Shown: positions 43,503 through 45,251 of the stretch, one piece after another
Layout: every line of letters begins with the position of its first letter
Numbering within the stretch: position 1 is the stretch's first letter
DNA from: a virus
Strand: one strand, 5' to 3'
Virus record (IMG/VR): IMGVR_UViG_3300035698_014029
Span: 1-64,000 of that record
Length of the DNA stretch: 64,000 bases
The notes under the pieces: model-generated
What the model saw: the letters and a program-made list of their open reading frames with translations, nothing else
The model's database searches: none
What the model was told of the DNA's origin: nothing
Translations under genes and position numbers: made by a program

Positions 43503-45251
43503 ATGATAAAATTTAAAAATGTAGTAAGTTTATTTGATGGACATAGTGGAGGAAGGATTGCATTAGATATTCAAGGTATAAAATATGAGAATTATTATTC
43601 TAGTGAAATAGATAAATATGCAATACAGGCTTCTGATGCTGTTTTCCCAGATAATATAAAACTTGGGAATGTTATTAAATTACGAAGATATTTAGAAAAG
43701 CCATATTTATTTGAAAGAATGTATAATTGTTCTTTTGTAAAAAAAGAGAATAAACAATTAATATTACATTGTACTGATTTATTATTAGACGGAGTAGATT
43801 TATTAATGGGAGGTTCTCCTTGTACTGGATTTTCATTTGCAGGTAAACAATTAAATTTTAATGATTCGCAAAGTAAATTGTTTTTTGAATTTATTAAAAT
43901 AAAAAATATTTTAAACCCTAGGCTTTTTCTTCTTGAAAATGTAAGGATGAAAAAGGAATATTATGAAGCTATTTCTAAATACGTAGGAGTTGAAGCAATA
44001 AAAGATGAAAAAGGTAAACCTTATATTAATTCTGCTTTAGTAAGTGCTCAAAACAGGATGAGATCGTATTGGACTAATATTGAGGGAGTTAAACAGCCAG
44101 AAGATAGAGGTATTTTATTAAAAGATATTTTAGAAGATGAAAATTCTATAGATGAAAAATATTACATAAAAGGAGTTAAGTTTGATAAATTCTTAAGTGA
44201 ATTAAAAGGGAGATATCTTAAGTTAAATAAAAAAGGTAATTTAAAGCAGAATCAAGATAAGGCTTCTACTTTAACTGGGGGAGGTCATTCAGGGGGCAAT
44301 CATTCAGATATGGATATTCTTCTTGTTGATTACTCACATCAAAATGAAGGGTTGCGTTTTTATGAAGGGAAAGCCCCTACTTTAAATGCTAGAGACTATA
44401 AAGAGCCTAGATGTATTTGTGTAGCACAAAGAGGTCGAAATATAGTTGATGGGAAAAGAAAGGATTATAATGGAGCCCCAACTGAACAACGATTAGAGCC
44501 AAATCTTGACGGCAAAACAAACTGCTTAACTACCGTAGGTAAAGATAATTTAGTATTAATATCTAATTCTAAAAAAAATACAATTACAGATAAATCTATA
44601 TATTATGAAAAGGATACAAGAACCCTTACGATATTGCAAGAATTGCAAGAAATTATTAGAGAGGAAAAGAATGGGGAATGGGCGGTGGCAATCTATGCAC
44701 GATTTTTTAAGGATGACCTACTGTTCAAAAGAATGTATGAAAGTTTCATTTTCAAAGAACAAAAAGGATGTAGTTACAGAGAGGACGAGCAGAGAGAGGG
44801 CACAAAAAATGATAAAGCCGTCTCTATGTGTGAAATGCAAAGTGAAGAATGGACTGGACGTCCATCATATAGATATGAATCCTCTAAACAATTCATTAAA
44901 CAACTTGCAGAGGTTATGTCGGAGCTGTCACTTGAAGATTCACAGACCGAAAAAAATATGTACCGTTTGTGGAAAACCACAAAAAGGGTTAGGTTATTGC
45001 GAAAAGCATTATCAACGATTCAAGAAATATGGAGACCCATTAAAATTGAAACAGAAGAAATCAACATAGATAAAAATAGTTATAAACTAAGAAGGTTAAC
45101 AGTAAGAGAATGTGGTCGTTTACAGACCATTCCTGAACCTATTTTAGATAAAATTTTAGCAAGTGGAGTATCAAATAGTCAACTTTACAAAATATTTGGA
45201 AATGGTTGGAATGTAGAAACAATAGCTCATATATTTAGTTTTATAAAATAA
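43503..45251 (+). CDS. C5 cytosine DNA methyltransferase with long variable region
   Basis: Motif I SLFDGHSGG, SEIDKYA, IV GGSPCTGFSFAG, VI LLENV, VIII SAQNRMR, IX RRLTVRECGRLQT, X YKIFGNGW. Confidence 0.9.
   Translation: MIKFKNVVSLFDGHSGGRIALDIQGIKYENYYSSEIDKYAIQASDAVFPDNIKLGNVIKLRRYLEKPYLFERMYNCSFVKKENKQLILHCTDLLLDGVDLLMGGSPCTGFSFAGKQLNFNDSQSKLFFEFIKIKNILNPRLFLLENVRMKKEYYEAISKYVGVEAIKDEKGKPYINSALVSAQNRMRSYWTNIEGVKQPEDRGILLKDILEDENSIDEKYYIKGVKFDKFLSELKGRYLKLNKKGNLKQNQDKASTLTGGGHSGGNHSDMDILLVDYSHQNEGLRFYEGKAPTLNARDYKEPRCICVAQRGRNIVDGKRKDYNGAPTEQRLEPNLDGKTNCLTTVGKDNLVLISNSKKNTITDKSIYYEKDTRTLTILQELQEIIREEKNGEWAVAIYARFFKDDLLFKRMYESFIFKEQKGCSYREDEQREGTKNDKAVSMCEMQSEEWTGRPSYRYESSKQFIKQLAEVMSELSLEDSQTEKNMYRLWKTTKRVRLLRKALSTIQEIWRPIKIETEEINIDKNSYKLRRLTVRECGRLQTIPEPILDKILASGVSNSQLYKIFGNGWNVETIAHIFSFIK
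44605..45069 (+). CDS. Zn-finger HNH endonuclease nested in the +1 frame inside the methyltransferase gene
   Basis: CKNC...YCSKEC; CVKC...DVHHIDMNPLNNSLNNLQRLCRSCHLKIH (HNH); CTVCGK...GYCEKHYQRFKKYGDP; own ATG with A at -3. Confidence 0.85.
   Translation: MKRIQEPLRYCKNCKKLLERKRMGNGRWQSMHDFLRMTYCSKECMKVSFSKNKKDVVTERTSRERAQKMIKPSLCVKCKVKNGLDVHHIDMNPLNNSLNNLQRLCRSCHLKIHRPKKICTVCGKPQKGLGYCEKHYQRFKKYGDPLKLKQKKST

Follow-up and report, generated by a model that had tools for sequence, protein, structure and literature searches.

How can a complete nuclease gene lie inside a DNA methyltransferase gene without closing the methyltransferase reading frame? This question is raised by a 64,000-nucleotide stretch of viral DNA (IMG/VR record IMGVR_UViG_3300035698_014029, positions 1 to 64,000), which we refer to as the window. 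A sequence-only reading had pointed there to an HNH endonuclease open reading frame (ORF) overprinted on an uninterrupted C5 cytosine DNA methyltransferase gene. It had offered two explanations, namely, a homing endonuclease that needs neither intron nor intein or an inseparable nuclease-methylase unit. Our analysis supports the first of these through the stop-free host frame, the insert-free homologues, and the lack of any splicing signature. We put at about 0.8 the probability that this is a homing-type HNH gene residing in a C5 methyltransferase without splicing, with the host frame read through as a loop.

The anatomy of the locus was as first described. The methyltransferase ORF stays open over the exact coordinates given for it and matches PF00145 (Table 1), with motifs I, IV (PC), VI (ENV), VIII (QxRxR), IX, and X all present in order; the motif names follow the usual scheme for C5 methyltransferases. 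The nested HNH ORF is in the +1 frame [(44605 - 43503) mod 3 = 1], and we confirmed its own ATG, the A at position -3, and the A/T-rich leader before it. Insert-free alleles had been proposed as the means of defining the insertion point, and insert-free homologues served for this. We aligned the insert-free homologues P0008 (360 amino acids [aa]), P0004 (389 aa), and L030 (390 aa) with the insert-bearing P0002, P0029, P0032, and P0100. In the three insert-free proteins, KDNL(I/L) joins Y.LRRLT directly, closing the gap exactly. The window insert separates these two elements, with the target-recognition region ending in ..KDNLVL on its 5' side and motif IX (YKLRRLT..) following on its 3' side. 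The insert had also been described as more GC-rich than its flanks, which is true to a modest degree only (0.339 versus 0.288 for the rest of the methyltransferase gene, with 0.282 for the window).

An assembly chimera would also place one gene inside another, and it had been named as something to check. We inspected Logan contigs of four DNA sequencing runs, one bridging run of which may be the window's source sample. The 5' junction is spanned in runs X1 and X2, and the 3' junction in run X4, by contigs identical to the window. Since these runs come from separate studies, a chimera is unlikely. The contig joints listed in the four runs had short sides of 21 to 40 nucleotides (nt) that resembled methyltransferases of other organisms.

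Could the methyltransferase frame be open across the HNH gene by chance? In 20,000 synonymous-codon shuffles of the window HNH ORF, the methyltransferase frame was open in none, and the mean number of expected stops was 9.24. The third frame, in contrast, holds 18 stops versus 16.65 expected from the same shuffles. Because no shuffle left the host frame open while the third frame sits at expectation, chance is excluded, and the open host frame is selected.

The same calculation was extended to the family. Near-full-length relatives amounted to 79 loci, reduced to 66 unique sequences after removal of identical ones. The host frame was without a stop in 64 of these 66 copies, compared to a mean of 7.26 stops expected from synonymous shuffles, while the third frame averaged 5.97 stops observed versus 5.63 expected. 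The remaining two copies, L086 and L089, are free-standing and lie beside a methyltransferase gene; in the frame that is open in nested copies, they have 8 and 16 stops, compared to 12.0 and 18.0 expected. With the nested copies open and the free-standing ones near expectation, the open host frame is a property of nested copies only. The host frame was open in all 64 nested copies, and stops were found only in L086 and L089.

The sequence-only reading held that both frames appear to be under selection and proposed comparing them. In a 20-member codon alignment, the mean pairwise difference was 0.322 at the first, 0.298 at the second, and 0.519 at the third HNH codon position. Mean pairwise amino acid identity was 0.607 for the HNH frame, compared to 0.398 for the host frame and 0.383 for the third frame. 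These values show protein selection in the HNH frame. The host-frame peptide is not under amino acid selection, because its conservation is no better than that of the unselected third frame. Thus, amino acid selection acts on the HNH frame only, and the host frame is selected merely for staying open; the claim of selection on both frames stands for the absence of stops and falls for the host-frame peptide. Since only the HNH frame is conserved, the host-frame peptides of the form LLRKALS.IQE.W are a shadow of the conserved HNH C terminus, GLGYCEKHYQRFKKYG.

The 79 loci comprised the window, Staphylococcus phage CUB-EPI_14, 20 IMG/VR contigs, 9 genome contigs, and 48 metagenome contigs; two part-length matches, L023 (the 21st IMG/VR relative) and L041 (the 10th genome contig), were left out of this tally. 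Searching IMG/VR with the HNH protein gave 25 loci, with all 21 relatives (43 to 54% identity) nested and 4 weak matches not nested. Every one of the 10 matches in contigs of bacterial genomes and metagenome-assembled genomes, from many lineages, was nested. The metagenome search gave 65 loci: 46 of the 48 near-full-length copies were nested, 9 weak matches were not, and among 8 part-length loci, the host frame was open across the match in 7, with L090 beginning at the first base of its contig. The CUB-EPI_14 record (ON325435.2) annotates a methyltransferase of 601 aa (36629-38434), whose +1 frame contains a 160-aa ORF with 50% identity (37788-38270); the nested HNH gene is unannotated in that record. 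This copy is not beside a terminase gene; its neighbors are nucleotide-metabolism genes. The suggestion that the element is widespread was therefore borne out by 64 nested unique copies from phage, viral, genome, and metagenome collections.

Placement within the host gene was uniform. All 64 nested unique copies sit alike just 5' of motif IX, the HNH frame is the host +1 frame in every nested copy, and the RRLT codons of motif IX invariably mark the 3' border. Motif IX is the constant insertion point of the family and presumably its homing target region. In the two free-standing copies, L086 (1843-3025) and L089 (732-2974), the HNH ORF lies on the 3' side of a gene identified by Pfam as a C5 methyltransferase and begins at most a few bases from where that gene ends. 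The L089 methyltransferase is itself in two ORFs (732-1580 and 1835-2452).

Homing endonuclease genes within coding genes normally ride in introns or inteins, and one HNH relative does lie inside a true intein of Brucella phage Tb (Pfam Intein_splicing, E 2.6e-15). We therefore weighed the possibility that an unrecognized self-splicing RNA or protein-splicing domain removes the insert and leaves a mature methyltransferase without a loop. An Rfam scan of positions 43400 to 45400 at E values up to 10 gave no intron family, only chance-level matches to small nucleolar RNA, long noncoding RNA, and small RNA families. Pfam on the 582-aa protein returned PF00145 alone and no intein family, in a search that does detect the Tb terminase intein. 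We found neither a ribozyme core around the ORF, as in group I and II introns, nor the Hint blocks and junction nucleophiles of an intein, in agreement with the first description of the locus. Outside the HNH ORF, the insert has only 46 nt on the 5' side and 11 nt on the 3' side, too little for a ribozyme core. RNA splicing would abolish the need for an open host frame, yet that frame is open in 64 of 64 nested copies, and the poor conservation of the host-frame peptide relative to the third frame speaks against a protein-splicing domain. A published study on the ShiLan domain, a similar insertion, also reports neither intron nor intein (PMC11855218). We consider removal of the insert by cryptic splicing very improbable.

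Regarding expression, the start codon was ATG in 62 and GTG in 1 of 63 unique copies, and a Shine-Dalgarno (SD)-like tetramer was present at positions -18 to -4 in 44 of the 63 versus 0.25 at control positions, with start codons picked by a rule that may be one ATG off in a few loci. We rejected a methyltransferase-HNH fusion produced by frameshifting. Upstream of the ATG, the HNH frame runs for only 15 codons without a stop in the window and for 1 codon in L006, and a start codon lies at the conserved N terminus in 63 of 63 unique copies.

The nested protein itself was examined for the features of an HNH nuclease. The three zinc modules and HNH core of the first description proved invariant, with the HH...N...N...CxxCH core and three Cys/His clusters present in 16 of 16 aligned members. 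The invariant HNH residues, which supply the catalytic His, the Asn residues, and the CxxC..CxxC zinc site of a ββα-metal core, are H87, H88, N96, N100, C75, C78, C105, C108, H109, and H113, and every family-invariant residue is intact in the window copy. In Pfam, the window HNH alone stayed below the gathering cutoffs (HNH_3, E 3e-4; HNH, E 2.6e-3; DZR_2, E 4e-4), and across the 16 aligned members, PF01844 was matched by 14 and PF13392 by 13. An AlphaFold model built from the family alignment had a mean predicted local distance difference test score (pLDDT) of 86.3. Residues 57 to 115 of this model matched the GVE2 phage HNH protein (5h0o_A) with a Z score of 6.1 and a root mean square deviation (RMSD) of 2.4 over 58 residues. 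McrA (Z 5.5), Gme HNH (Z 5.4), I-HmuI (Z 4.5), and TagI were also among the matches, and the 10 best structural matches (VIA-align) were mostly HNH nucleases with middling Z scores of 4.2 to 6.1. On the reading that we prefer, the nested HNH protein would be an active nuclease.

Methyltransferases with and without the insert both exist. Coverage of the 582-aa query was at most 72% for 114 of the 119 best non-self homologues listed and 99% for 4, which carry a similar host-frame peptide. Their host-frame peptides suggest that P0002, P0029, P0032, and P0100 carry the HNH frame as well. Over 1,417 locus pairs, in which contigs occurring in both the viral and metagenome sets are counted twice over with duplicates kept, mean identity was 0.63 for the HNH protein versus 0.40 for the 200 upstream host residues. 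Among pairs with HNH identity of at least 80%, the upstream host flank was less than 60% identical in 72 of 98. The HNH proteins of L087 and L088 are 98% identical with upstream flanks of 41%, and those of L021 and L088 are 97% identical with flanks of 48%. In the 25 most discordant pairs listed, the motif IX-X flank was 70 to 84% identical. The insert is the same in L080 and L081, and the methyltransferase sequence upstream of it is different. Presence and absence among homologues, the constancy of the insertion site at a conserved motif, and the lower divergence of the insert compared to its flank lend indirect support to homing.

These pairs also bear on the second explanation of the sequence-only reading, a compact restriction-modification or addiction-like unit in which the HNH protein cuts host or competitor DNA and the methyltransferase protects the carrier, the two being functionally tied. 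In keeping with such a unit, C5 methyltransferase genes accompany all 64 nested copies and the two free-standing ones, HNH nucleases serve in restriction systems, and McrA and TagI appear among the structural matches. However, HNH proteins that are 97 to 98% identical are surrounded by variable (specificity) regions that are only 41 to 48% identical, which implies that the specificities of nuclease and methylase do not move as a pair. The insert is absent from most homologous methyltransferases, and a related HNH protein in the same frame relation occurs in the terminase intein of Brucella phages, where no methyltransferase is involved. We regard a functionally tied unit as very unlikely, and this half of the earlier proposal is not supported.

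HNH proteins encoded beside terminases reportedly assist DNA packaging in some phages, as Kala and colleagues are said to have described in 2014. In the window, the methyltransferase gene is directly 3' of the large terminase gene. The insert might then be an old, fixed passenger that no longer homes, with the HNH protein co-opted (e.g., for terminase packaging) or decaying and the open frame a relic. A methyltransferase that is still needed would keep the host frame open, no close insert-free allele of the window gene was found, and help with packaging from HNH proteins next to terminases is described for some phages in PMC3592412. Against this stand the intact family-invariant residues of the window HNH protein and its confident model (pLDDT 86.3), as well as the CUB-EPI_14 copy, whose neighbors are nucleotide-metabolism genes rather than a terminase gene. 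A fixed passenger thus seems unlikely to us.

In the homing-without-splicing reading that we prefer, a mobile homing-type HNH gene would have inserted just 5' of the motif IX codons, bringing neither intron nor intein. Its codon usage avoids stops in the host frame, which is offset by one base to the left. Ribosomes on the methyltransferase would read through about 174 extra codons. The product would be a methyltransferase, presumably still active, with a poorly ordered loop between its target-recognition region and motif IX. A second initiation event, at the HNH ATG (44605), would yield the nuclease, which presumably cuts methyltransferase alleles lacking the insert at or near motif IX, whereupon repair would copy the element in. 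In an AlphaFold model of the whole 582-aa protein (79-sequence alignment), residues 1 to 100, most of residues 131 to 220, and the block from 531 to 582 had pLDDT values of 91 to 98. The catalytic core and motifs IX-X were above 90, and the insert was at 33 to 63 with low-confidence helices. The disordered loop is only a prediction of this model.

Several points weigh against this reading. Motif IV reads PCT in the window, as it does in two insert-bearing relatives (P0029 and P0032), versus PCQ in 90% of aligned homologues, so it is uncertain that the methyltransferase is active. Upstream of its ATG, the window copy lacks an SD-like sequence, and other A/T-rich members are likewise without one. 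Other window genes also lack SD-like sequences, which would fit an SD-poor phage host such as Bacteroidota; the only DNA matches of the methyltransferase core were in Cellulophaga and Vibrio phages. No RNA sequencing run was found to contain the stretch. Foldseek found nothing in the PDB for the HNH model at an E value of 0.001 or less, and a profile search of PDB sequences gave a best match of only E 0.012 (IscB HNH domain). The upstream flank in the mobility argument is the variable target-recognition region, which diverges fast and recombines independently. No insert-free allele close to the window methyltransferase was found, the nearest being 39 to 71% identical over parts of the protein, and the N-terminal 350 aa had only two close relatives in viral contigs (39% and 26% identity). 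None of the contig joints listed for the four DNA runs skips the insert, a result that is silent on the existence of insert-free alleles. Because no close insert-free allele was found, recent homing into the window gene itself would be conjecture; the patchy distribution and the greater conservation of the insert than of the host gene hold at the family level.

We also entertain, tentatively, a broader hypothesis in which this HNH clade is a one-target specialist, directed at the motif IX codons of C5 methyltransferases, with several interchangeable splicing-free rescue routes. Read-through, as in the window and 64 of 66 unique copies, could be one such route, and parking beside the gene, as in L086 and L089, could be another. 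A third, just as speculative, would be a six-base stop-containing spacer that lies between matching codons behind a co-varying hairpin and over which ribosomes may hop (L052, L075, and L080/L081). If this hypothesis is true, the element has evolved the read-through loop as a feature of its own. A bolder version would have the methyltransferase methylate its own motif IX DNA, shielding carriers from the nuclease.

Table 1. Features of the methyltransferase-HNH locus in the window and stop sites in nested relatives
Feature	Coordinates	Strand	Evidence or remark
C5 cytosine DNA methyltransferase ORF, uninterrupted, 582 aa	43503..45251	+	PF00145, E 3.2e-29 (Pfam)
Methyltransferase motif I, FDGHSGG	43533-43553	+	
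Methyltransferase motif IV, GSPCTGFS	43812-43835	+	
Methyltransferase motif VI, ENV	43935-43943	+	
Methyltransferase motif VIII, QNRMRSYW	44049-44072	+	
Inserted element, 522 nt, 174 host-frame codons	44559..45080	+	Alignment with insert-free and insert-bearing homologues; borders good to about 6 nt
A/T-rich leader of nested gene, 46 nt	44559..44604	+	No Shine-Dalgarno-like tetramer; translated in host frame
Nested HNH endonuclease ORF, 154 aa, +1 frame relative to methyltransferase	44605..45069	+	Three Zn-binding Cys/His clusters, HH..N..N..CxxCH core
Methyltransferase motif IX, YKLRRLTVRECGRLQTIP	45081..45134	+	Directly 3' of insert
Methyltransferase motif X, GNGWNV	45198-45215	+	
Stop-between-matching-codons site	L052 ~891-925; L075 ~734-770; L080 ~1507-1545; L081 ~858-895; L096 ~420-460		

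Some relatives differ from the window in ways that we record here. Four or five nested relatives have one stop in the host frame, immediately after RRLTP(L/V) and between matching codons (Table 1). The sequences at these sites are GTT TAG GTT, CTT TGA CTT, and CTT TGA CTG, after which the frame continues as (L/V)ECERLQGF..., and omitting the stop plus one codon restores the canonical motif IX; in L096, the sequence after the stop instead continues in the +1 frame. Immediately upstream of the stop, the LTP codons form the end of a GC-rich hairpin that shows compensating changes. The arrangement resembles either a +6 "stop-hop" or readthrough site or a gene in decay. Synthetic hops, which Weiss and colleagues reportedly described in 1987, offer a comparison for such sites. 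In L021 (2962-3642), L035 (2177-2893), L033 (2962-3591), L039, and L040, the HNH ORF has a C-terminal extension with an extra C..C...GYC.KH zinc module, and since this extension is again read through in the host frame, the element grows by modules without closing that frame. A shorter HNH relative, without the third zinc cluster and with 36 to 39% identity, occurs in Komagataeibacter phage phiKX1 (L003; LC644975.1, 1336-2995). It overlaps the 3' part of a 550-codon open frame that matches PF00145, a frame that the record does not annotate as one gene, and its HNH ORF continues over the codons of the methyltransferase C terminus.

At the window locus itself, the exact 14-mer AAAAATTTGGTATG occurs only twice in the window (43488-43505 and 45246-45263), extending to about 18 identical bases. 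One copy is at the start codon of the methyltransferase gene, and the other is at that of the DnaB-like gene that follows. Because AAAAATTTGGTATG is repeated at both start codons, the whole methyltransferase/HNH gene looks like a cassette that was inserted by duplication of the start region of the downstream gene.

Taken together, this family is a well-measured case of a third lifestyle for homing endonuclease genes in coding genes, in which the host frame is written stop-free, the other two relying on splicing of RNA or of protein. The long methyltransferase ORF is all that gene callers report, so "long" C5 methyltransferases in databases may hide nuclease genes. The odd loop peptides of these long enzymes are then shadows of conserved HNH sequence. 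The family is also a natural experiment on overlapping-gene evolution, in which nested and free-standing copies can be compared, and it includes a cultured phage, Staphylococcus phage CUB-EPI_14, suited to studies of read-through, internal initiation, and homing.

The sequence-only reading had supposed that elements of this kind were overlooked, which no longer holds: actinophage methylases with this arrangement were described in 2023 and 2025. Gosselin et al. 2023 (PMC9957025) presented the "ShiLan domain" as an insertion that is scattered among actinophage methylases and moves horizontally. In 2025, Arsenault, Gosselin and Gogarten (PMC11855218) reported that it encodes an out-of-frame HNH protein with no intron or intein, and they proposed a tolerated loop. 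The 2025 paper gives a second case, Pacc40 gp60, with free-standing relatives beside methylase genes, and a genome announcement (PMC12613952) already annotates an out-of-frame HNH case. Our literature searches turned up no paper on this particular C5-methyltransferase HNH family. The arrangement is thus already known, and the window family is a further, distinct case of a ShiLan-type hidden HNH gene.

Judged by PMC9957025 and PMC11855218, the ShiLan element and the window family both have an HNH gene with flanking zinc fingers in another frame and no intron or intein, and both are patchy among methylases, with an insert that diverges less than its host, a predicted loop, and no bench test. They also differ. 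On the same sources, the ShiLan HNH gene occupies the third frame and starts at a GTG proposed to be leaderless, whereas that of the window family is in the second frame (+1) and starts at ATG, mostly with an SD-like sequence. The window family resides in PF00145 C5 methyltransferases at a fixed site 5' of motif IX, while the word "cytosine" is absent from both ShiLan papers. ShiLan is described from actinophages only, whereas records of the window family span many bacterial lineages. Searching by tblastn with two members, the window HNH protein and a GC-rich one, returned 47 and 5 matching records, respectively, with no Mycobacterium phage among them. Either the HNH lineage differs from that of ShiLan or ShiLan lies beyond the reach of BLAST, in a comparison made through the published description and tblastn, with the ShiLan sequence itself outside it. 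The free-standing copies have published equivalents too. According to PMC11855218, Pacc40 gp60 and the free-standing HNH genes of Tiff81/Sashimi are one lineage found nested and beside an insert-free methylase, as L086 and L089 are in our family. The Tiff81/Sashimi genes are 5' of the methylase gene, in contrast to L086 and L089, which are 3' of theirs and which serve here as a measured control, with 8 and 16 stops in the frame that nested copies keep open.

Inteins provide a second comparison. In a cyanobacterial dnaX intein (bioRxiv 10.64898/2026.09.14.751524) and in actinophage inteins (bioRxiv 10.1101/2025.01.02.630785), the preprints describe an endonuclease in a shifted frame within a region that is translated through, as in the window. 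In those cases, the junk peptide leaves with the intein by protein splicing, whereas the window has no intein, so the host-frame peptide should remain in the methyltransferase. Brucella phage Tb (L002; NC_019446.1, 1483-4029 and 2306-2992) combines both features. Its distant HNH relative (about 29% identical) is in the +1 frame of the large-terminase ORF and sits within the true intein mentioned above, in a record that says both "intein present" and "intron-encoded." By tblastn, 41 Brucella phage records match the HNH protein, with phage Tb the one examined in detail.

The window HNH protein shares its ββα-Me core with I-HmuI (PDB 1u3e), the chain 1u3e_M matching residues 57 to 115 with a Z score of 4.5 and an RMSD of 2.2 over 51 residues. 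However, I-HmuI is intron encoded, the window HNH gene has no group I intron around it, and sequence identity is 16%. In Aeromonas phage Aeh1, the free-standing homing endonuclease gene mobE is said to split its target gene nrdA (work attributed to Friedrich and colleagues, 2007), and phage T4 reportedly has a mobA/gene 60 bypass cassette (Bonocora and colleagues, 2011). Like the window element, these are homing endonuclease genes that have invaded a coding gene without intron or intein and with an unusual rescue. In Aeh1 and T4, the gene is in two pieces or the ribosome bypasses the gap, whereas in the window, the host frame stays open through the whole endonuclease gene.

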